From: a virus
Taxonomy: Duplodnaviria > Heunggongvirae > Uroviricota > Caudoviricetes
DNA: 21,412 nucleotides
Virus record (IMG/VR): IMGVR_UViG_2740892117_000010
Coordinates: 1-21,412 of that record
Strand: one strand, 5' to 3'
Position 1 is the first letter of the stretch, and the number at the start of each line of letters is the position of its first letter. The notes below the pieces were generated by a model. That model was not told where the DNA came from and ran no database searches. It saw only the letters and a program-made list of their open reading frames with translations. Positions 2,543 through 21,412 of the stretch are shown here, in pieces. Both the position numbers and the translations under genes were made by a program.

Positions 2543-3057
2543 CAGGCTAATGCGCTTTCCTGGTCACGACGAATAACCTGTCCATAGCAGTTATTTGAAC
2601 GTATGCGGCAATCGCGCCCACCATCTTTTATCCACCAGCGAATCGCCTCGCATGCACCTTTACGATCACCAGCATTCAGCCGCTTATAAAACGTCGACGG
2701 AAAACACTTACCGGGGCCAATGTTATAGGGACAAAATGACGCGATACCCGCTTTTTGTGGCTCGGTCAGTGGTACTTTAATATTGCGCTCCACCCATGCC
2801 AGCGCCTTATCACGCTCAATGGCGTTGACCTGGTCGCATTTTTCCTTCGACAGTTTCATACCGGGAAAAACGGGTTTTCCATCCACCATCGTGGCACCCC
2901 GACAGATGGTCCAGATGCCGGAACCATCGCGGTATGCCGTTGTGTGGTTACCTTCTTTTTCATCCAGAAACTGGTCGAGAATATCAGGCGCGGGCGCACC
3001 GACGGCAATCAGTGCCAGAACGGCAGCCGACAGGCCGTATCTGATTTTTGCGTTCAT
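2524..3057 (-). CDS. R: SAR endolysin (phage-21 R / P1 Lyz type lysozyme with N-terminal signal-anchor-release domain)
   Basis: N-terminal weakly hydrophobic Gly/Ala-rich segment ([16 protein letters not shown]) followed by a T4-lysozyme-like catalytic region; positioned between holin and Rz. Confidence 0.88.
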
Positions 3058-3120
3058 GGATATTTATCAGGATTTATCGGTTTCTGCCCACGGACAGGTT
3101 TATCTGTTCCGGTCAGTGAC

Positions 3121-3471
3121 TTAAGGTTGTGATTCCGGAGGAGTCTTCAGAGAACCAGTAATTCTTCCTGGTAGCTTTCCTTTGTAGGTTATCCAAACAT
3201 TCTGCGCATCTAAAATTACGGAGCGCTTTTCCGGCGACTGCTCGTCCCCTTCACATAACCCGGCAGCAACATCTAGGAAGACCTGTCTGATGCTCATTCT
3301 GGCTGCTGCCTCATAAAACTCCAGCGCGGCACCTTCAACACGGTCCAGCGAGATGTCCAGGTCAAAAATTTCACCGTCAAAGCGTTTTTTGTCCCGTAAC
3401 GCTAAAGTTACCGTAACTTTATTCTCAAAATTGCGGATCCCTTTCACAATCAGTTCATAGTTTTGAGTCAT
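3121..3471 (-). CDS. Hypothetical protein (116 aa) inserted between pinholin and endolysin
   Basis: ATG at 3471 with GGGGAGAG Shine-Dalgarno, starting 4 nt after the holin stop; no recognisable family. Confidence 0.6.
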   Translation of the reverse strand: MTQNYELIVKGIRNFENKVTVTLALRDKKRFDGEIFDLDISLDRVEGAALEFYEAAARMSIRQVFLDVAAGLCEGDEQSPEKRSVILDAQNVWITYKGKLPGRITGSLKTPPESQP

Positions 3472-3475
3472 TGAA

Positions 3476-3691
3476 TTACTCTCCCCGTGCAGCCTTACGC
3501 TTGTCTTCTTTAATCTTGAAATAAAGGTTTGTCAGATACGTCAGCAAGCCAAATACCAGACTACCCAGCACACCTATTGCCGCCCACTGTGAGGGCGTGA
3601 CTTTATCGAGCAACTGTAAAAACCAGTACCCGGCACTACCTGCTGAGGTGCCATAGGCGACACCCGTTGTTAACTTATCCATGGATTTCAT
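3476..3691 (-). CDS. S: Pinholin, phage-21 S type (71-aa antiholin / 68-aa holin dual start)
   Basis: Translation [71 protein letters not shown] is near-identical to S21 as remembered, including the MKSM...MDK dual-start motif. The ORF-track start at 3778 is an upstream extension. Confidence 0.9.
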
Positions 3692-3758
3692 AACCCCACC
3701 TCGCAGATGCGGGTGCTGTGTAATGGAAATAAAAAGGCCACCTGACGTGGCCACCAGA

Positions 3759-4811
3759 TTATTTCCCCACCAGCTCATTTATCTCTTTCACTGTCTGATT
3801 AAACCGCTCTGACTCAAGCTCAACACCTAAGGCCCGACGCCCCAGCGCCATTGCTGCTTTTATTGTGGAACCGGATCCCATAAAAAAATCAGCAACCAGA
3901 TCACCTGGTCGACTACTGGCATTGATTATTTGCCTGAGCATATCCGCCGGTTTCTCACACGGATGTTTCCCCGGGTAGAACTGAACGGGTTTATGCATCC
4001 AGACATCGGTATAAGGCACGGAGACTGATACGGAGAAATAGCGCCGGAGAGATTTAAACTCATCCAGCAATTCAGAATATTTACGATTCAGTGAATCATA
4101 AGATGCCACCAGCTGGTGGTGTGGTTGTTCCAGTTGTTGTTCCTGAAACTTCTCTGCCGCTATACGGGAAAACAGTGCCTGTAACTTCCGATAGTCAGCC
4201 TCATTCGGCAACTGCCACTGACTGGCACCAAACCAGTGGGAAACCATATTTTTCTTACCTGTGGCTTCGGCAATTTGTTTTGCCGTTATACCCAGTTCGG
4301 CACGAGCATCCCTGAAATACGATATCAGCGGTGCCATTATGTGCTGTTTGAGTTCCCTTTCTTTTGCTGCATAGCCGTCACTTTTGCCGCGATATGGCCC
4401 CTGGTAATGTTCAGCAAACAGAACGCGCTCTGTGGCAGGAAAATATGCGCGCAGACTTTCTTTATTACACCCATTCCAACGTCCGGACGGCTTCGCCCAG
4501 ATGATATGGTTAAGCACGTTGAAACGTTCACGCATCATGATCTCAATATCAGATGCCAGGCGATGCCCACAGAACAGGTAAAGGCTTCCGGCAGGTTTTA
4601 ACACCCGCCAGAACTGGGCCAGACAGTGGTCCAGCCACTTAAGGTAATCTTCGTCCCCTTTCCACTGATTGTCCCAGCCGTTGGGTTTCACCTTGAAGTA
4701 CGGCGGATCGGTAACAATCAGGTCAATGGAATCATCAGGCAGGGACTGAATAAAATGCAGGCAATCAGCGTTGATTAAATCAACACTGTTTATTTTTACA
4801 GTATTTTTCAT
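3759..4811 (-). CDS. DNA methyltransferase (N6-adenine/N4-cytosine class, DPPY motif), orphan
   Basis: Contains IVTDPPYF (motif IV) and a C-terminal FxGSGST-like AdoMet motif; no adjacent restriction endonuclease. Confidence 0.85.
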
Positions 4812-4961
4812 GGATCAGTAAGCGTAACTCTGGTAGGCTCACTCTGCTTTTGCGCTAAAGCAGTGGGCCGTGGTTCGCTTGTGACCAGTAAGCATGAGCG
4901 AATGGCTGGCAGGTGCTACCAACACCCACCAGCCGCCCATTTTCACAGCAGGAAACCGCCA

Positions 4962-5189
4962 TTACTGGCAGCGTCTGAATTTATTCCCGTACCCGCCGTT
5001 ATCCTTCGCCAGACCCGCCAGAACTAACTGAGTCAGTATTAACTGGCACCGGGCTTCGCTTACTCCGGTAGTTCTCGTCATCATGCGTGGCGTTACCCAC
5101 TTGTCAGCAGGTAAGAAATGAAGGACTGCGGCGGCGGTTTCTGTCATATCTTGCTGTTTTAGCATGTCTTTTTCCCTTCTGGTTAACAT
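4962..5189 (-). CDS. Small hypothetical protein (75 aa; possible start at 5165), first ORF after the late terminator
   Basis: ORF with GAAGGG upstream of the second ATG; C-terminal half looks like a winged-helix segment; function unknown. Confidence 0.4.
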   Translation of the reverse strand: MLTRREKDMLKQQDMTETAAAVLHFLPADKWVTPRMMTRTTGVSEARCQLILTQLVLAGLAKDNGGYGNKFRRCQ

Positions 5190-5283
5190 GACATACCAAT
5201 AACTCTTGTCTAAAAATCCAGCAAGATAAAAAGTCAGTATTCACGACCACCAGCGTGTTTACTGTACTGCACCAAGTTTACAG

Positions 5284-5311
5284 GTACAAAAAACCCGCTC
5301 AGTGGCGGGTT
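5284..5311 (-). terminator. tR-prime-like intrinsic terminator downstream of the late promoter
   Basis: Minus strand reads AACCCGCCACTGAGCGGGTT followed by TTTTTTGT. Confidence 0.7.
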
Positions 5312-5357
5312 CTTAAATCTTATCAACGGTAGACATACAAAGCCCATCGTTGGGGAA

Positions 5358-5386
5358 ATCTTATCCATATTTTTTGAAAAATGCAA
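5358..5386 (-). promoter_or_regulatory. Late promoter (pR-prime-like), presumed Q-engagement region
   Basis: Minus strand TTGCAT - 17 nt - TAAGAT immediately downstream of the Q-like gene stop and about 45 nt upstream of the tR-prime-like hairpin. Confidence 0.6.
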
Positions 5387-5417
5387 GTATCATGTCGTCA
5401 TCTTCGGCGAAAATCAT

Positions 5418-6212
5418 TTATCTTGTCACTTTTCTCAATTGTGTCTCTGCATATGCTTCTTCCTGCCAGCACTTTGTAACCAGTTTATCAATGACATCTG
5501 CATATCCTTTGTACCACTGATAATCCGTCAGATCCGGTACCAGCTTCTGGACATGATGCCGCGCCAGTGTGGTTGGTAAACGGCTAAACCGGTTTCCATT
5601 GCAACGCCCACAAATCTTATAAACAGGCGTGCCATGAAGCCGGGTCCTTTTTTCATCCAGGACAATACCTTTACCCTTACACCCTCTGCACGCTGTGCTG
5701 ACTTCTCCCTTACCATGACAATGCTGACATAGTTCCTTCACCCACTCCTCCTTGATAACAGATTCACCGCTTCTGGAGTGTTTCACCACTTCGCGCAATA
5801 CATTATGAAATCCAGTACCTGCACAATGCTCACAGCGAGCCTTACTTGCCGCAGACCTGGAATAATCAGCAAAGGCAAAATTCACAAGGTAAGGGATGAT
5901 CTGTAACCGGGTTTCTTCACTCAATTTATTCAATGTCGGGTTATCCAGTGCCATCGCGTAATTGAGCAGACCTTCAATCGCAAACTGAGGATCCTGAACA
6001 CCAACTTTTGCCAGGAATAAGGCAAAACCCAGTGGTGCTTTCGACTGCACCATCCCCTGCGCAGCCATTACATCCGTAATTGTTAAACCACCAGAGCCTG
6101 TCGCCGGTGCGTCATCGCTCAATTTTGGAGATTTCGGGGAGTAATATTTCGGTAAGGCTTCAAGGTTCATGCTCGTTCTCCACTTACGCCAGCACGCCAA
6201 TTGCCAGCGCAC
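5418..6212 (-). CDS. Q: Late-gene antiterminator Q (phage-82 / QuuQ-like family)
   Basis: Position directly upstream of the late promoter and terminator; several CxxC zinc-binding pairs (CEHCAGTG, CQHCHGKG, CRGCKGKG, CGRCNG). Start may be the internal ATG at 6170. Confidence 0.7.
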   Translation of the reverse strand: MRWQLACWRKWRTSMNLEALPKYYSPKSPKLSDDAPATGSGGLTITDVMAAQGMVQSKAPLGFALFLAKVGVQDPQFAIEGLLNYAMALDNPTLNKLSEETRLQIIPYLVNFAFADYSRSAASKARCEHCAGTGFHNVLREVVKHSRSGESVIKEEWVKELCQHCHGKGEVSTACRGCKGKGIVLDEKRTRLHGTPVYKICGRCNGNRFSRLPTTLARHHVQKLVPDLTDYQWYKGYADVIDKLVTKCWQEEAYAETQLRKVTR

Positions 6213-7179
6213 GATCGATAAAACGAAATATCAGCTCCAGCTGGGAGCCATACTTCTCTTCAAATGCCACGGTATCCGCATGCAGCTCGTCGTGATGCTT
6301 TCTGCACAAAGGCAACACAAAAAGGTCATGCGCTTTTGTTCCCATTCCACCCTGACCGTGACCTATCAGGTGGTGGGGATCATCAGCGGGCTTTCCACAA
6401 CATGCACACGGCTGTGTCTTAACCCAGCGCGTGTACTTTTCATTAACCCAGCGGCGACGTTTTGGGCGTAACATAAAAGACTCCGGCGACTCCGGATCCA
6501 CTTTCAGCGCCAGCACCTTTTTCGCCTTATCCTGGATGATGCTGGTGGCAGGAACCGAAGGCACAAGGTCACTTTCCCGGGTAACAGACGGCACAACAGG
6601 CTTCGGTAATCTCAGTGCCTTACGGGCTGCACTTTCCGGTAAGGCATCCGCCAGATCATTACGAATCAGCCACCAGCACAGTTCCGGCATTGTCACAACG
6701 TGACTGTCATCAAAACCGAGATCCCGACGCACAACAGACAACACCCAGCGGGCACAGTTATCCGTTGCCATTGATTCCAGCCGTTCCGTGAACTGATCGC
6801 GCAGCTGGTTATCGCAGTGCCAGCACAGACGGATTGCACCCGGAGCGTGTCGCATTGTGGTCATGTTCTCGCTGTGCCAGTCGGAATGAGGCCACTGGCA
6901 GCCTTTTTCACGAAGTAACCAGCTTTCAAGACATTCCACGCCACCAGCACGACGGATCACTGCCTCATTGCGGAACACGGCCCGAACGGCAGGATCATCC
7001 GCCAGCGGTTGTGATGCCGCCGGAACGGCACCACTGGCGAAAGATGAATAACGCTCCGGCTCAGGCTCCAGCAGGACACGCCCCTGCATAAACAGGGGCA
7101 TCAGCTCTGAACCTGGCCTGAACAATACGATCCCCATACGCGGGGCAATTTCAGGGGTCAGTAGTGCTCTCACGGTCAC
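6184..7179 (-). CDS. DUF968 / YdfU-like protein with C-terminal HNH-like motif
   Basis: C-terminal CACCGKPADDPHHLIGHGQGG...CRKHHDELH resembles an HNH/zinc-finger nuclease motif; lies upstream of Q as ydfU does in the Qin prophage (from memory). Confidence 0.65.
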   Translation of the reverse strand: MTVRALLTPEIAPRMGIVLFRPGSELMPLFMQGRVLLEPEPERYSSFASGAVPAASQPLADDPAVRAVFRNEAVIRRAGGVECLESWLLREKGCQWPHSDWHSENMTTMRHAPGAIRLCWHCDNQLRDQFTERLESMATDNCARWVLSVVRRDLGFDDSHVVTMPELCWWLIRNDLADALPESAARKALRLPKPVVPSVTRESDLVPSVPATSIIQDKAKKVLALKVDPESPESFMLRPKRRRWVNEKYTRWVKTQPCACCGKPADDPHHLIGHGQGGMGTKAHDLFVLPLCRKHHDELHADTVAFEEKYGSQLELIFRFIDRALAIGVLA

Positions 7180-7180
7180 C

Positions 7181-7978
7181 TCAATGAACGGTATCGAGCA
7201 GCTTTAACAGCTCAGGGAATCGGGATTCGAAGAAATGCGGCTGCGTCTCGCGCGGATTTGCGGGACTGGTGATGTTCTTGCCGAACATGCAGCCTTTCGC
7301 TGTCAGCGACCAGAATTTTTTGATGTTGTTAATCGCGGTACGGCTGTATCGTTCGCGCTGCTCGACGATCCCCAGCTTCACCATCTGGTGATATGCCTGA
7401 TTAGCTGTCAGGCGGATACCATACTGCTTCAGCAGTGCACTCAGTGACAGCGTGGGGCGGCTTGAGCCATCAGGCGCGTCAGCAGGAGCATCAATGGCAT
7501 AGCGCGGTGCCAGATTCGGTAAGCCAACAGCCTCCTGGAGTTTCTGACAGGCACCAAGCACTGAAGAGTTAGACAGGTTTAATTCCCGGCGCATAAAGTC
7601 CAGCAGAATCACACCAGCCTGCATCTTGTCAGCAGCCTGTCCGGATAATTTTTCCGGTGCGCTGGTTACCATGTCGAAAGTACGGATCACCTTCAGATGG
7701 AATGACGGGCTGATCCACATTGCATAGGCATACACCAGTTCTTTGCAGACATACGTCCCCTGGTTATTTCCGCCACGAATAACGTTAACTGGCTCTATAT
7801 TGACCGAGTTGCAAATCTGCAACTCGCTTATTAAACGTTCAGTTTGCTCATTGCGGAGCCAGAATGCAGGCTTATGCTTATCCAGAGAACCGGCAGCCCT
7901 GTGCAGATCGTTCAGGCTGTAACGACCATAAGCATCACGACGAACTTCAATACCATCAATGACCATCAGATTATTCAT
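7181..7978 (-). CDS. KilA-N domain protein
   Basis: N-terminal IDGIEVRRDAYGRYSLNDLHRAAG...KPAFWLRNEQTERLISEL is characteristic of the KilA-N DNA-binding domain. Confidence 0.7.
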   Translation of the reverse strand: MNNLMVIDGIEVRRDAYGRYSLNDLHRAAGSLDKHKPAFWLRNEQTERLISELQICNSVNIEPVNVIRGGNNQGTYVCKELVYAYAMWISPSFHLKVIRTFDMVTSAPEKLSGQAADKMQAGVILLDFMRRELNLSNSSVLGACQKLQEAVGLPNLAPRYAIDAPADAPDGSSRPTLSLSALLKQYGIRLTANQAYHQMVKLGIVEQRERYSRTAINNIKKFWSLTAKGCMFGKNITSPANPRETQPHFFESRFPELLKLLDTVH

Positions 7979-16679: not shown

Positions 16680-17860
16680 CCATGGCGGCAAGGCCACGTA
16701 AAAAAGAATACAGACATCTTCCTGATTATCTGGTTTTTGATAAAGATCGAGGTGTTTATAAATTCACACTTATTACCGGAAAAAAGAAAAATATAGGTAA
16801 GGATCGGGCAATAGCCGTTGCAATCGCCAGAGAGTACAACCTGAGGATGCGATCAGAATTATACCCATCAGTGGATAATCTTATTAGAGAATCTGGCGGG
16901 GTCACCGGAGAAGCAAAACCATTTGCTGAACATGTCGATCACATAATGGCCAGAATTATCGAAGACGAACGACCTTCCCAGAGTACCTTAGATGACTGGA
17001 AAAATGACGCTCTACGCGTAAAAGCATTTTTCGTAAATGTTCCGGCATGCGATATCGAACTTGAACACGTTAATGCCTACATCAACAAATATCATGCCAG
17101 CGCATCCGCAAATGTGCAGAACAGAAAGGTCAGCTTTCTTAAAAAGTTGTTCTCTTATGCGGTCGATGAATCACTAATGCAGGATAACCCGGCCATCAGA
17201 AAAAAAATGCGTAGGACTGATGAGAAGAAAAGACGGCGCCTGTCACTCGAGCATTTTATAGCTATCAGGCAGGCCGCTGCACCATGGTTAAGAACAGCAA
17301 TGGACCTAGCATTGCAGACTACACATGCACGACTCGAAGTATCGCGAATCCGTTACTCAATTCGCGAACCTAAAGACGGTTTATGTGGATGTGTTTGGTT
17401 CGAACAACCACAAAATGGCATATATGGTACACTATACATCCATAGGCAAAAAGTACAAAAAAAGGAGGCATCACATGTTGCAATACCAATTGGTGAAGAA
17501 TTGAAACGGATAATTGACAATAGCCGTGACAATGTGGCCAGTCCCTTTGTCGTTCATAGAATCCCAGAACGGCATGTTAAACGCAGTAAAGAGGTTTCGC
17601 ACCCAACTCAAGTTGCACCAGATTATTTGAGTCGGTCATTCTCTTCCGTGCGAGACAAACTCGGACTATGCAATCATCTAGCAATGGAACAAAGACCTAC
17701 ATTCCATGAAATAAGAGCTTTGGCAGCTCACCTATTTGATAAACAAGGGATTGATCCGCAGGGACGAATGGCACATAGCGATGCGAAATCTACTAAAATT
17801 TATACTAAAAATCATATAGATTGGATTGTTGTCCCTCATGGAGAAATTAAAACCGGTTAG
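16676..17860 (+). CDS. int: Tyrosine integrase, lambda Int family
   Basis: N-terminal arm-binding-like region; C-terminal catalytic region parallels lambda Int (PTFHEIRALAAHLF vs PTFHELRSLSARLY, then H...Y). Confidence 0.9.
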   Translation: MTMAARPRKKEYRHLPDYLVFDKDRGVYKFTLITGKKKNIGKDRAIAVAIAREYNLRMRSELYPSVDNLIRESGGVTGEAKPFAEHVDHIMARIIEDERPSQSTLDDWKNDALRVKAFFVNVPACDIELEHVNAYINKYHASASANVQNRKVSFLKKLFSYAVDESLMQDNPAIRKKMRRTDEKKRRRLSLEHFIAIRQAAAPWLRTAMDLALQTTHARLEVSRIRYSIREPKDGLCGCVWFEQPQNGIYGTLYIHRQKVQKKEASHVAIPIGEELKRIIDNSRDNVASPFVVHRIPERHVKRSKEVSHPTQVAPDYLSRSFSSVRDKLGLCNHLAMEQRPTFHEIRALAAHLFDKQGIDPQGRMAHSDAKSTKIYTKNHIDWIVVPHGEIKTG

Positions 17861-17997
17861 TTATTAAATTCTCCACTTTATTTTGACTGACAATAACGGT
17901 TGCTAAGGCATAGAGTAAAGCTTAATTTAAAAGGCAGTTCTATGCCCATTTACCATAACTCCTCCCTTGTCCAGAAAGCAATATTTATTAATAAAAT

Positions 17998-18954
17998 TTA
18001 TTTACCCTTATTATACTCTTCAGTAATCTTATTCATGGATGATATATATTTATCCAGCCCACCATAGTTGGCTATCATTCGAAATGAATTACGGTACTCT
18101 GCCATTTTCACATCATGATTAGTAATTCCACACCAGCCACAAACTTTATTTTCCATGTTTAAAGGCTCATAACATTTTTTACATTGCCTTGATGCAGGTA
18201 TTATATTGCCATTAATAAATTGGTGTGATTTGAGATTTTGAGATAAAAGAAATGGTGTAGTTGTTGTTTTTCCTATTACCATTTCGAAATATCTACATTT
18301 AGCCTTTTTAGCTAAAGATTGAATTTTCTGCTTTAATAAATCATTTGATTTGTGCCCAACTATAACTCCAGTTATACAATTAATCGGTACCGGAAGGAGC
18401 ATAAGATTGTCATTCAGTTTAGTAAGTGCTTTCTCATTAATTATTACGCGACGTTCCTGCTCATAACTCCAGCAAGTTTGTTTTGTCAAATATGCGGCTG
18501 TCATTATACAGGATTGTAGCCAGTAGATATAACGAGGTTTACAGATATGAAATGCTCTCGCCAGAATGTCTTCAATACCTGTATCTGGAGAATCTTTATA
18601 TTCAACATCTGCTATTGAACTATGATCCTGGAAGCCGATTTCATCCAAATACTTTTTAAACTTCTCCTCATTAATCTCTATTACAAAACCAGAAGAATTA
18701 CCTGCATAATGTGCCCACATAGGTGGTATCACAGGGCTTTTCGTAAAACAAGTTGCTGGTTGTTTTGTAACCATGCCAATCATTTCATTGTAAAATGCTA
18801 ACTCATCAGAACCGCGATTAAAATCAATAGTAAGGAAAAACTCATAGGGATCATTATATTCATGTAAATGAGAGAATTTTATTCCTATATGTGTTTCATC
18901 CATCATCAATTTATCAATTATATCCGCTCCCATAAACTTATACAAATTGGTCAT
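17998..18954 (-). CDS. DUF2971-like protein with C-terminal CxxC...CxxC zinc ribbon; AT-rich cargo gene
   Basis: ATG at 18954 with AAGGAG Shine-Dalgarno; N-terminal NLYKF...FSHLHEYNDPYEF resembles the DUF2971 signature as remembered; C-terminal CKKCYEPLNMENKVCGWCG; markedly AT-rich versus flanks. Confidence 0.6.
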   Translation of the reverse strand: MTNLYKFMGADIIDKLMMDETHIGIKFSHLHEYNDPYEFFLTIDFNRGSDELAFYNEMIGMVTKQPATCFTKSPVIPPMWAHYAGNSSGFVIEINEEKFKKYLDEIGFQDHSSIADVEYKDSPDTGIEDILARAFHICKPRYIYWLQSCIMTAAYLTKQTCWSYEQERRVIINEKALTKLNDNLMLLPVPINCITGVIVGHKSNDLLKQKIQSLAKKAKCRYFEMVIGKTTTTPFLLSQNLKSHQFINGNIIPASRQCKKCYEPLNMENKVCGWCGITNHDVKMAEYRNSFRMIANYGGLDKYISSMNKITEEYNKGK

Positions 18955-19050
18955 ATACAACTCCTTTTTTATAAAATAACATTTTAAATCATATGATTAT
19001 GGAGGCACAAAATCCAGTAATTAGTTTTCAAGCCGGTTGTGATGTAGTTC

Positions 19051-19403
19051 GAGGACAAACTGAAACGTATTATTGATAACAGTCGCGATAACGTTGCCTG
19101 CCCGTATATCGTTCACCGTATACCGAGCGTAATAACAAACGCAGTAAAGAGGTATCCGCACCTGCCTATCTTAGCCATACTTTTCATTGCCCCGTGATTC
19201 GTTAGGCTTGTGTAATAATTTGACGATGGAGCTGCGCCCCCACATTCCACAAAATACGCGCACTAGCTGCATTTTGTTTGATAAACAGGGAGTAGACCAC
19301 AAGGGCTCATAGCCCACAGCGACGCGAAATCAACGAAAATTTATACGCGGAACCATATGATTGGGTAATGCTTCCGCACGGTGAAATTAAATACAATGCA
19401 TAA
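19051..19403 (+). pseudogene. Decayed 3' remnant of a second lambda-family integrase
   Basis: Roughly 70 percent nucleotide similarity by eye to int 17497-17860 (KLKRIIDNSRDNVA..., ...PHGEIK), with frameshifts and premature stops. Confidence 0.75.
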
Positions 19404-19436
19404 TAAAATTGGCCTCAAATGAGGCCAATTTTGGGG
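19404..19436. terminator. Bidirectional intrinsic terminator (perfect 12-bp inverted repeat AAATTGGCCTCA / TGAGGCCAATTT)
   Basis: Hairpin flanked by T-runs on both strands, between the integrase remnant and the convergent two-gene operon. Confidence 0.75.
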
Positions 19437-19437
19437 A

Positions 19438-19821
19438 TTAGGACGCTTTAGACTTGGTCATATTAGCGCAACGCTGGATTAATTTCTCTGCAGTCTTAAT
19501 CGCGGTGCTTGATTGGGTTGGCGTAATAGTGTCGTTAAGTCTGTAATCACAAACTATTCTCTGATCCTTAAGCGATTGAAGAGCATACCCCAAACCAATT
19601 AAGTCTCTTTTTTCAAAAGGTTCGTTACCCTTCCAAGCATCGTTAACAAGATAGTCAATGAGGCCTTGGTGACTTTCTTTCGGCCCCATGGTCAAACACG
19701 GAAGTACGTGGTGATAAGCACCATAATACGCACGTGCGACAGCGTTTCTGTAACCAATTTCGTCGTTACGCTTTTCACAATCTTTTGCGAAAGCGATAAA
19801 ATCGGAACTATTAACTGGCAC
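19438..19821 (-). CDS. Hypothetical protein (127 aa from GTG 19821; 144 aa if TTG 19872), possible HEPN-like helical fold
   Basis: GTG at 19821 with GGAGGA 8 nt upstream, overlapping the upstream stop; RAYYGAYHH has R-x6-H spacing but family assignment is speculative. Confidence 0.55.
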   Translation of the reverse strand: MPVNSSDFIAFAKDCEKRNDEIGYRNAVARAYYGAYHHVLPCLTMGPKESHQGLIDYLVNDAWKGNEPFEKRDLIGLGYALQSLKDQRIVCDYRLNDTITPTQSSTAIKTAEKLIQRCANMTKSKAS

Positions 19822-20578
19822 GCGCAGGTTCCTCCAAACGCCCTTCAAACCATACGCTGAAGGGTTTTCCAATCAAACTTTCATTTTCTGCAAGAGAAAA
19901 TGCTATATCCAAGTTCATATCAGAGAGAACATCAGAATCTTCAGTATTAACTGCCATGACATATGATGACGTACGCTCTTCAGGGATAGAGCAGAAAGAC
20001 ATAGCAACAGGACTAACTTTATGGTCAGCCATGATATCCACTATGCGGTTTGCAATATCCTGTAGTTCTTCATCAGTAATTCCAGTTGCACTTTTGAAGG
20101 TCGTGGATTGGGCCAGTGCTGTGGCTGCGAGGTGCTTAACCAATTCAGCCTCCTTTTCATCTACCATACTTATCAATCTCTCAGCATAGTAGAGCGCTTT
20201 GTCAATACGCCCCAAGAACAAGTTAGCTTCCCATGCATGGGACAGCATCGTAGGGGAGTTATAACGTTCAACTAATCGATTTACCACTTGTTCAACTTCA
20301 CGGAAGCTGCCGTAATCGTTGAGATAAACTACATAATTTTGAGCAATGATCAGGTTGTTATGCTTCAATGCTTCTTCAAAGAATGCAACTGCAGTATCTT
20401 TACGCCCAAAAGCACCATTAGCCAACGCTTTGAGATAGTCCTCAGATGCGCTGTCGCGCAACTTTTCTATATCTCTGATATAACGAAAATATTGCATTTC
20501 GGATATCGTATTCCGAGCCGCAAGAATATCGATTAATTCACTGCTGATTTCGTTCGCTTTTAGCGCCGGCTGTGGCAT
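19811..20578 (-). CDS. Hypothetical alpha-helical protein (255 aa), first gene of a two-gene operon
   Basis: ATG at 20578 with AAAGGTGA Shine-Dalgarno; TPR-like helical composition by eye; no catalytic motif recognised. Confidence 0.6.
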   Translation of the reverse strand: MPQPALKANEISSELIDILAARNTISEMQYFRYIRDIEKLRDSASEDYLKALANGAFGRKDTAVAFFEEALKHNNLIIAQNYVVYLNDYGSFREVEQVVNRLVERYNSPTMLSHAWEANLFLGRIDKALYYAERLISMVDEKEAELVKHLAATALAQSTTFKSATGITDEELQDIANRIVDIMADHKVSPVAMSFCSIPEERTSSYVMAVNTEDSDVLSDMNLDIAFSLAENESLIGKPFSVWFEGRLEEPARAS

Positions 20579-20773
20579 TAAATCACCTTTAAGAAACTAC
20601 GAGCTATGTTGCTTTAACTTCTGCAATCTTAGTAAGTTTTAGAAGGTTACATGAAGATGATCGTAATTTCCAATGGGCTAAAATGGTCAAAAAGCGAAGT
20701 AATTGTTGACTTTACGCCAAACATAAAACAATCAACAAAAAACATGTAGCCGCTCGGAAACTTAGGAGATAAG

Positions 20774-20802
20774 TCTGTGGATAACTAAATCTTATCCACA
20801 GA
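20774..20802. promoter_or_regulatory. Head-to-head pair of consensus DnaA boxes (TTATCCACA) forming an 11-bp inverted repeat
   Basis: TCTGTGGATAA - 7 bp - TTATCCACAGA in the AT-rich upstream region of the 19438-20578 operon. Confidence 0.5.
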
Positions 20803-21012
20803 AAAGCATATTAGAAGCAAATCAAAAAGTGCTATAGACGGAACCTATTAATATAGTAATGCTCCAAAAACTGACCATTTAGGAGTGGGGAAAAATCTCT
20901 CTTAACTCATTGATGTATATAGCGTGAATTTTGCGAATTATGCACTGTTTGCGCACACAGTGAAACACCCTGCCAGCCCAGCAATGGCGCGGTCTCCAGC
21001 GTTTCAGGCGCG

Positions 21013-21062
21013 GTGACATGGGGTGTCGGGGGTCGGAGGTTCAAATCCTCTCGTGCCGACCA
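21013..21062 (+). other. att core: 3' fragment of tRNA-Pro (proL-like; anticodon arm to CCA), not a complete tRNA
   Basis: ...ATGGGGTGTCGGGGGTCGGAGGTTCAAATCCTCTCGTGCCGACCA matches the remembered proL 3' half (T-arm, acceptor 3' strand, CCA); no complementary 5' acceptor strand (CGGCACG) upstream. Confidence 0.75.
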
Positions 21063-21074
21063 AAAATCCCAAGA

Positions 21075-21102
21075 AAACCAACCTATTGCGGTTGGTTTTT
21101 TT
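21075..21102 (+). terminator. Intrinsic terminator (native host terminator following tRNA-Pro)
   Basis: AAAACCAACC - TATTGC - GGTTGGTTTT followed by a T-run. Confidence 0.8.
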
Positions 21103-21163
21103 ATATCTGCATTTAATTCGATAAACAGACCGCGACACATCACGGCCTGTTTATTTTCTGTTA

Positions 21164-21412
21164 TCAGAACGTCCAGACCACACCCGCCTGAGTTGTGCTG
21201 CTTTCTTCACGGGAGAAACGGCTGTCGATACCAAGCGTTAGCCCCGTCAATGTTTGCTCAAAGCCAGCGCCTGCATCAGTGGTCACGTTGTTGCGGCTGT
21301 TAATTGCCGAACTCCACATCGCCGTATCGTAATTAACGCCTTTTACGCTACCAAGACGCCCACGCACGGTGTCCAGTTCTGCATCAAATACCAGCGGTTG
21401 TGCTGCCGCCAT
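21164..21412 (-). CDS. Host outer-membrane/autotransporter-like protein, C-terminal fragment (yejO-like; continues beyond window end)
   Basis: Beta-strand-like alternating pattern ending in a terminal aromatic (...AGVVWTF); convergent with tRNA-Pro as yejO is beside proL in E. coli K-12 (from memory). Confidence 0.45.
   Translation of the reverse strand: MAAAQPLVFDAELDTVRGRLGSVKGVNYDTAMWSSAINSRNNVTTDAGAGFEQTLTGLTLGIDSRFSREESSTTQAGVVWTF

Follow-up and report, generated by a model that had tools for sequence, protein, structure and literature searches.

The attB site of bacteriophage lambda is an intergenic 15-bp core between gal and bio. Integrases that target tRNA genes leave a different and by now textbook signature, in which a regenerated tRNA gene lies at one end of the integrated element and a displaced 3' fragment of that gene lies at the other. 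The use of regenerated tDNAs and displaced 3' fragments to mark the ends of genomic islands is an established principle (PMC4383910). In the Islander survey, a 3' fragment was found in 3760 of 3919 islands and an anticodon-centred site in 2083 (Hudson, Lau and Williams 2015, PMC4383910). The tRNA-Pro gene proL has been named as a prophage site in Escherichia coli STEC O121:H19 (PMC8767318). Our literature searches found nothing specific on the phage described below, on its relatives Flotzy and Eeyore, or on proL prophages in ST131, and proL does not occur as a whole word in PMC2928814.

Here, we analyze a 21,412-nt stretch of viral DNA (IMG/VR record IMGVR_UViG_2740892117_000010, positions 1 to 21,412), hereafter called the window. 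An original prediction, made by reading the sequence alone, placed a prophage-host junction near the right end of this stretch. We conclude, with a probability of about 95%, that positions 20886-21102 correspond to attR, the ordinary right junction of a 46.9-kb lambda-like prophage integrated in E. coli proL.

Results

A displaced tRNA-Pro fragment at the right end of the window

Positions 21017-21062 read CATGGGGTGTCGGGGGTCGGAGGTTCAAATCCTCTCGTGCCGACCA and are identical at 46 of 46 bases to positions 32-77 of the 77-nt E. coli tRNA-Pro(GGG) gene proL (Table 1). The reference for this alignment was the intact tRNA-Pro(GGG) gene called by ARAGORN at the far end of the matching genome described below. 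The fragment is the sole match in the 21,412-nt window when up to 3 mismatches are allowed, and shuffled sequences yielded none. Direct comparison of attL with attR showed that the identity continues for 8 bases beyond the tRNA, to give a 54-bp core (CATGGGG...GACCAAAAATCCC) that is common to both sites.

These alignments refine the limits of the junction. The original prediction described the 3' ~50 nt of a proL-like tRNA, and such a fragment is indeed present, though it consists of exactly 46 nt of tRNA plus the 8 further identical bases. The junction had been started at 21013, which is 4 nt too far to the left, because 21013-21016 (GTGA) is phage-arm sequence outside the tRNA fragment and the core begins at 21017. 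The element had also been drawn as reaching about 21062. However, the tRNA fragment is host DNA, and therefore the phage DNA ends at the left edge of the core, at about 21017-21024. ARAGORN detected no complete tRNA in the window, nor did Rfam at the gathering score, and a permissive Rfam scan of 20850-21200 returned only a 14-bit match to tRNA-Sec. No complete tRNA-Pro gene is thus detected at the junction, which is the outcome that a displaced-fragment reading required.

Table 1. Coordinates of the junction and neighboring features in the window.
Feature	Position	Strand	Basis
Prophage tyrosine integrase, lambda Int type, with N-terminal arm-binding domain	16682..17860	+	Pfam, PHROG, lambda Int alignment, RefSeq WP_000741304.1
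Low-GC cargo block	17861..20885		3,025 bp, between integrase stop and P arm
DUF2971 gene	17998-18954	-	Pfam; PADLOC PDC-S31 E = 4.9e-22; PHROG 1762
Frameshifted second-integrase relic, ~130 aa of the C-terminus	~19003-19403	+	tblastn of window integrase; annotated recombinase pseudogene
Hypothetical gene	19438-19821	-	PHROG family
TPR-like hypothetical gene	19811-20578	-	Pfam TPR, PHROG family
Phage-derived P arm (phage side of attR)	20886..21016	+	~80% identity to post-integrase stretch of Flotzy and Eeyore
Candidate arm-type Int site GGGGAAAAAT	20887-20896	+	GGGGAAWAAY motif
Conserved motif TGGCGCGG	20985-20992	+	kept in P arms from six genera
att core, 54-bp identity block	21017..21070	+	attL/attR comparison; one copy per end
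Displaced host 3' fragment of proL tRNA-Pro(GGG), positions 32-77, ends CCA	21017..21062	+	46/46 match
Anticodon loop ATGGGGT, inferred strand-exchange (overlap) region	21018..21024	+	left boundary of tRNA identity
Host-native intrinsic terminator hairpin of proL (AAGAAAACCAACC / GGTTGGTTTTTTT)	21071..21102	+	inverted repeat, fold, naive-strain identity
yejO 3' end, host autotransporter gene, runs off the window	21164..21412	-	Pfam Autotransporter beta-domain, RefSeq annotation

The intact tRNA gene and a second core copy at the far end of the prophage

The far end of the prophage lies outside the window and was read from a near-identical public genome, that of E. coli CCUG 73778 (NZ_CP041337.1), rather than from the sample's own contig. 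The window differs from this genome by 1 mismatch in 21,412 bases. In CCUG 73778, an intact tRNA-Pro(GGG) gene adjoins yejM on the same strand and lies 46,896 bp to the left of the window core (core-to-core distance), in keeping with the prediction that an intact tRNA-Pro would be found at the other prophage end. Leftward of the window there are terminase, portal, capsid, tail and tail-fibre genes and a DinI-like pseudogene, followed by tRNA-Pro(GGG) and yejM; to the right of the tRNA fragment there are yejO, narP and the ccm and nap operons. The window itself contains lambdoid lysis, antitermination, replication and regulatory genes, a cI/cro-like pair and an integrase gene. Across the whole interval between the two ends, the gene content includes terminase, portal, capsid, tail, lysis, regulatory and integrase functions.

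The shared core had also been expected at the distal end, and the 54-bp block is found there: it occurs exactly once at each end, in two loci that jointly span the whole prophage, with no third copy across the interval. We reconstructed the empty site by joining the host left flank, the tRNA gene and the right flank of the window. The resulting 236-nt attB is 100% identical to the corresponding sequence of naive strains SK1144, E7 and FXCREC048, and its coverage reaches ≥80% in 4825 of 5426 complete E. coli genomes; an uninterrupted proL site is absent from ~11% of complete genomes.

Set beside the features by which Islander recognizes tDNA islands, the locus has a tRNA fragment with an exact counterpart within an intact gene of the same replicon, and this 3' fragment lies downstream of the intact gene in the same orientation. 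The interval encloses a tyrosine integrase gene (16682-17860), and excising the interval together with one repeat restores the naive locus. A contiguous attP in a free phage is available through the homologues Flotzy and Eeyore only. The intact gene at the far end, the shared core and the flanks that rejoin to the naive locus together bear out the proposal that the fragment is a displaced host 3' end.

The native proL terminator and convergent yejO

A strong terminator had been proposed to follow the fragment. An inverted-repeat search identified a hairpin whose two 13-nt arms span 21071-21083 and 21090-21102, with a T run after the second arm. The predicted fold has a free energy of -15.8 kcal/mol (z = -5.7), a stability that none of 200 shuffles attained. 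This plus-strand hairpin was not flagged by a simple terminator consensus scan, a miss that we attribute to the putative consumption of the T tract by an A/T extension of the stem; we therefore relied on folding and the inverted-repeat search. The far-end left flank and the window right flank together are 100% identical to the naive locus, and therefore 21071-21102 is the native proL terminator, as had been suggested.

The convergent host gene of the original prediction is also present. The minus-strand open reading frame at 21164-21412 encodes an autotransporter beta-domain and corresponds to yejO, or to a yejO pseudogene, in the matching genomes. RefSeq annotates yejO in CCUG 73778 as a truncated, frameshifted pseudogene, and the gene is full length (2592 bp) in strain 98218, which bears the same prophage end. 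Because the hairpin is preceded by an A run and followed by a T run, the proL terminator may also serve convergent yejO.

Sequence resembling this part of the host site is found in the Gifsy-2 record NC_010393.1, where 44257-44334 match window positions 21028-21104 (the 3' part of tRNA-Pro plus the terminator) at 83%. This match may be a relic att-like sequence.

Attachment-site arms and the proposed position of strand exchange

The left arm of the junction resembles phage DNA (Table 1), and the far-end sequence to the right of the core matches the continuation of the same stretch in Flotzy and Eeyore. In these two phages, the P arm, core and P' arm are contiguous and directly follow the integrase gene, which is the configuration of an attP site. 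Because the left arm of the window and the right arm of attL match a contiguous phage attP, 20886-21102 corresponds to attR. The exact phage of the window is absent from the phage collection that we searched, in which relatives with ~80% identical arms are present, and its free attP was therefore reconstructed rather than observed. The remainder of the 4.5-kb query had no near-identical DNA in that collection.

The motif GGGGAAWAAY occurs at -130 and at +103, +114 and +125 relative to the core in all three attP sites, namely those of the window phage, Flotzy and Eeyore. The P' arm copies lie on the minus strand at ~26300-26330 of the far-end locus and are spaced 11 bp apart. These repeats are plausible candidates for arm-type Int binding sites. 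A further motif, TGGCGCGG(C), sits 32 nt to the left of the crossover in the P arms of proL phages from six genera, and it may be a candidate protein-binding site.

The sequence becomes identical to the tRNA 1 nt before the loop ATGGGGT, and the same base marks the onset of identity in the attR sites associated with nine related integrases (that of the window and those of eight other taxa). From this common left boundary, we infer that strand exchange takes place within the anticodon loop at 21018-21024. As in the anticodon-centred class of tDNA sites (PMC4383910), identity extends from the anticodon loop to the 3' end of the tRNA. The phage also carries a terminator-like stem of its own, AACCAGCC/GGCTGGTT, which differs from the host stem, AACCAACC/GGTTGGTT, by a compensatory pair. 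Similar terminator stems flank the proL fragments in Enterobacter and in one metagenome-assembled genome (MAG).

The attR of strain 2020N21-246 departs from this pattern. At locus positions ~968-978, which are equivalent to window 21006-21016, it has host-type GCGCACCGT to the left of the core and not phage-type GCGCGGTGA, and the host-type sequence extends identity with the tRNA to 55 nt. This difference could reflect a variant phage attP or gene conversion between attL and attR.

A lambda-type integrase linked to tRNA-Pro fragments across genera

The integrase gene of the window is transcribed toward the att site. Its product has an arm-DNA-binding domain (Pfam Arm-DNA-bind_1, PF09003; 25.5 bits against a cutoff of 22) and matches PHROG 1, 'integrase', at E = 1.7e-29. 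Taken alone, PF00589 scores under its cutoff (17.2 against 27.1 bits). However, residues 4-359 of the protein align with residues 3-325 of lambda Int (1Z1G/5J0N) at E = 1.7e-12, and the protein is 77% identical to the integrases of phages Flotzy and Eeyore. An HxxR motif (HEIR) is visible in the alignments with both Flotzy and lambda Int, and a C-terminal tyrosine (KIYTKNH), the candidate catalytic residue, is visible in the Flotzy comparison and lies outside the lambda Int alignment. The protein thus combines an arm-DNA-binding domain with a tyrosine recombinase catalytic domain, as expected of the lambda type.

Integrase relatives with 71-89% identity are found in seven named Enterobacterales taxa (Enterobacter, Pseudocitrobacter, Citrobacter, Erwinia and three Serratia) and in one unclassified MAG. 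In all eight, the integrase gene is followed on its own strand by a 3' fragment of tRNA-Pro, whose identity begins at the same CATGGGG.

This linkage bears on the possibility that the fragment has nothing to do with the prophage and is a chance or unrelated tRNA-like remnant, for instance from a local duplication of proL long ago. The sole point in favor of such a remnant is that tRNA fragments can arise by other routes. Against it, no 46/46 match is expected by chance, the naive locus is recovered exactly when the interval between the cores is removed, the left flank shows homology to the attP arms of phages, and the association of integrase and fragment is conserved across genera. We regard an unrelated remnant as refuted by the last three of these observations and its probability as negligible.

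Two loci with related integrases stand apart. MAG OH_SBB_50 contains, within ~3 kb (locus 2732-5800), an intact tRNA-Pro(GGG) gene, an integrase gene truncated to residues 181-392 and a tRNA-Pro fragment that lacks 7 nt internally; this locus looks like the decayed remnant of a proL element. The integrase relative from Parashewanella hymeniacidonis is 52% identical and has no tRNA-Pro fragment, and a complete tRNA-Val(GAC) gene lies just downstream on the opposite strand (locus 7179-7547). This arrangement may represent a shift of target in a distant branch of the integrase family.

The junction as a possible second tRNA-Pro gene

Automated annotation raises a different reading of the junction, in which 20985-21062 would be a complete, divergent tRNA-Pro gene with a working 5' half contributed by the phage arm. 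PGAP annotates a 78-nt tRNA-Pro at the equivalent junction in 2020N21-246 (947-1024), APEC O78 (5083-5160) and VE-V11-M (4625-4702; all in locus coordinates). Moreover, the start of the arm, TGGCGCG, pairs at 7 of 7 positions (two of them G-T) with the acceptor 3' strand CGTGCCG. At a 90% threshold, ARAGORN reported tRNA-Pro for two hand-typed versions of the junction, one from 2020N21-246 and one an APEC O78-like version that reused flanking bases of the window.

The window itself gives a different result. ARAGORN found nothing there at its default setting or at 95%, and it returned only an implausible tRNA-SeC at 90%; the sister loci were likewise negative at normal thresholds. Rfam at the gathering score detected nothing in the window or in three sister loci, and permissive scores did not exceed 14 bits. 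The conserved nucleotides of a tRNA are missing as well: position 8 is G rather than U, the D loop AGCGTTTCA has no GG and hence no G18-G19, and mismatches break up the D stem. The acceptor 3' strand reads CATGCCG in Serratia, yet the arm motif there shows no change that would restore pairing, and CCUG 73778, the genome that matches the window, has no tRNA annotated at the junction. Thus, neither a detectable cloverleaf nor the conserved nucleotides and acceptor covariation of a functional tRNA-Pro are found at 20985-21062, and we consider a second working gene highly improbable. The calling of att fragments as tRNAs is a documented error of tRNAscan-SE (PMC9897764), and the PGAP 'tRNA-Pro' features at the sister junctions are probably over-calls of this known type.

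A related idea about the origin of the arm was tried and set aside. When the 32 nt of arm beside the core were treated as a degenerate tRNA 5' half, their global alignment to proL 1-31 was matched in score by 14% of shuffles, and TGGCGCGG shows no covariation in Serratia. We therefore rejected the arm as evidence for an ancestral attP that carried a whole tRNA, which leaves only the 7/7 pairing potential.

Integration could also create a transcribed tRNA-like hybrid RNA, composed of phage 5' sequence, host 3' sequence and the host terminator, with a role in the prophage that could be, for example, that of a decoy or a processing substrate. The conserved TGGCGCGG(C) can pair with the acceptor 3' strand, and tRNA-Pro is called by PGAP in several genomes, both of which would suit such an RNA. 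However, there is no cloverleaf, no U8 or G18-G19 and no covariation, and a scan revealed no plus-strand promoter-like site. We hold a hybrid RNA with a prophage role to be very doubtful and retain the reading of the junction as an ordinary attR.

Variable cargo between the integrase and the attachment site

The window integrase gene and the P arm are separated by a cargo block with a GC content of 38%, compared with 48% for the rest of the prophage (Table 1). All three intact proteins encoded by the block belong to PHROG families. The block also contains an integrase relic of the same family as the intact integrase, which ends in ...DWVMLPHGEIK and lies 1.1 kb downstream of the intact gene. 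The relic suggests past recombination between two proL phages, and the 3-kb cargo that contains it points to a rearranged history.

The slot between the integrase stop codon and the P arm is empty in Flotzy and Eeyore (loci ~5996-6001) and in four other relatives. It measures ~1 kb in APEC O78 (locus 3816-4872), with contents unlike those of the window, 1.3-2 kb in Serratia MAG486, Pseudocitrobacter and Enterobacter, and 3 kb in the window. We take the interval from integrase to attP to be a slot for variable cargo within a single mobile element, rather than a separate remnant to which the fragment belongs.

The alternative is a composite or tandem history, in which the fragment and P arm would come from an older, mostly deleted proL element with the relic at ~19003-19403 as its integrase. 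The present prophage would then have been joined to them by deletion or recombination, and this attR would originally have been paired with an integrase other than the live one. Several features are compatible with such a history. The frameshifted relic lies on the same strand between the intact integrase gene and the P arm, the P arm of Flotzy and Eeyore comes directly after the integrase stop codon, and the cargo block differs in GC content from the remaining prophage. However, only two core copies exist across the whole element, and no P-arm-like or core-like sequence was found after the intact integrase gene. In addition, cargo of 1-2 kb separates the integrase gene from the fragment in other relatives as well, and the whole arrangement recurs at ≥99% identity in 52 to 54 genomes from human, dog, pig, cattle, poultry and feed isolates, which fits a single mobile unit better than a local scar. 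A composite origin of the junction is accordingly unlikely by a wide measure. Because both integrases belong to the proL-targeting family, the identity of the fragment as part of attR would be unchanged even under this history. A tandem att array was considered separately and rejected, given that there is no third att copy and no P-arm-like sequence after the intact integrase gene.

Three further observations concern the contents of the slot. The DUF2971 gene may be a prophage-borne candidate defence gene of the PDC-S31 family. Within the TPR-like gene, 20103-20134 (minus strand) match a CRISPR spacer of E. coli NY1601 (NZ_CM135959.1) at 32 of 32 positions; the spacer is leader-proximal in a type I-E array between ygcE and queE, and the protospacer is flanked by a consensus AAG PAM at 20135-20137. 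Finally, the non-coding DNA between the cargo genes and the P arm contains, at 20774-20802, an inverted repeat with perfectly matching 11-bp arms, TCTGTGGATAA / TTATCCACAGA, separated by 7 nt.

Discussion

The sequence comparisons presented here place the right end of a 46.9-kb lambdoid prophage with a precision of a few bases and identify its target as proL. Its integration is best explained as follows. The phage attP carries the tRNA sequence from the anticodon loop through the terminal CCA, then 8 more bases and a terminator-like hairpin of its own, with a predicted sequence of window 20886-21070 joined to TTAAGAACCAGCC.... The lambda-type integrase (16682-17860) recombined this attP with chromosomal proL. 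The functional tRNA at the yejM end is consequently a hybrid of the host 5' part and the phage 3' part, and the phage hairpin serves the regenerated gene as a terminator-like element. The original host 3' part (21017-21062) is the displaced fragment in the window, moved 46.9 kb away and still joined to its native terminator (21071-21102) and to yejO. On this reading, the sole role of the fragment is to provide half of the substrate for a predicted excision. The prophage may still be competent to excise.

The junction is an already known kind of feature, with nothing new in kind. Its precise position is useful for annotation and for the design of attB and attP PCR assays. It also carries a warning, because the junction hybrid has been annotated as a second tRNA-Pro gene in some RefSeq genomes. 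The cargo slot, with its candidate defence gene and CRISPR spacer match, may merit more follow-up than the junction itself.

The STEC O121:H19 prophages share the proL target gene with the prophage described here (PMC8767318), and it is by target gene alone that they are likened. The correspondence with the tDNA islands of the Islander survey is more extensive. Those islands have a regenerated tRNA gene at one end, a 3' fragment in the same orientation at the other and a tyrosine integrase gene inside, and the identity block that runs from the anticodon loop to past the CCA end resembles that of the anticodon-centred 'A' subsite. No difference is substantial; the integrase gene of this prophage adjoins the displaced fragment rather than the regenerated tRNA gene, with 3 kb of cargo before the att arm.

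In its recombination module, the prophage resembles lambda. Its integrase shows full-length homology to lambda Int with an arm-binding domain, its integrase gene is oriented toward attP and its gene content is lambdoid. Candidate arm-type repeats are found ~100-130 bp from the core on both sides, including a tandem P' set spaced 11 bp apart. In contrast to the lambda site, the core of the window is 54 bp long and sits within a tRNA gene; the phage has to replace the 3' part of this gene as well as its terminator. Flotzy (PP925827) and Eeyore (PP925821) resemble this prophage in having 77% identical integrases, homologous P and P' arms, the same 46-nt 3' part of tRNA-Pro and a similar hairpin. 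They differ in that their attP sites come directly after the integrase stop codon, whereas in the window prophage this position is taken up by 3 kb of cargo that includes an integrase relic.
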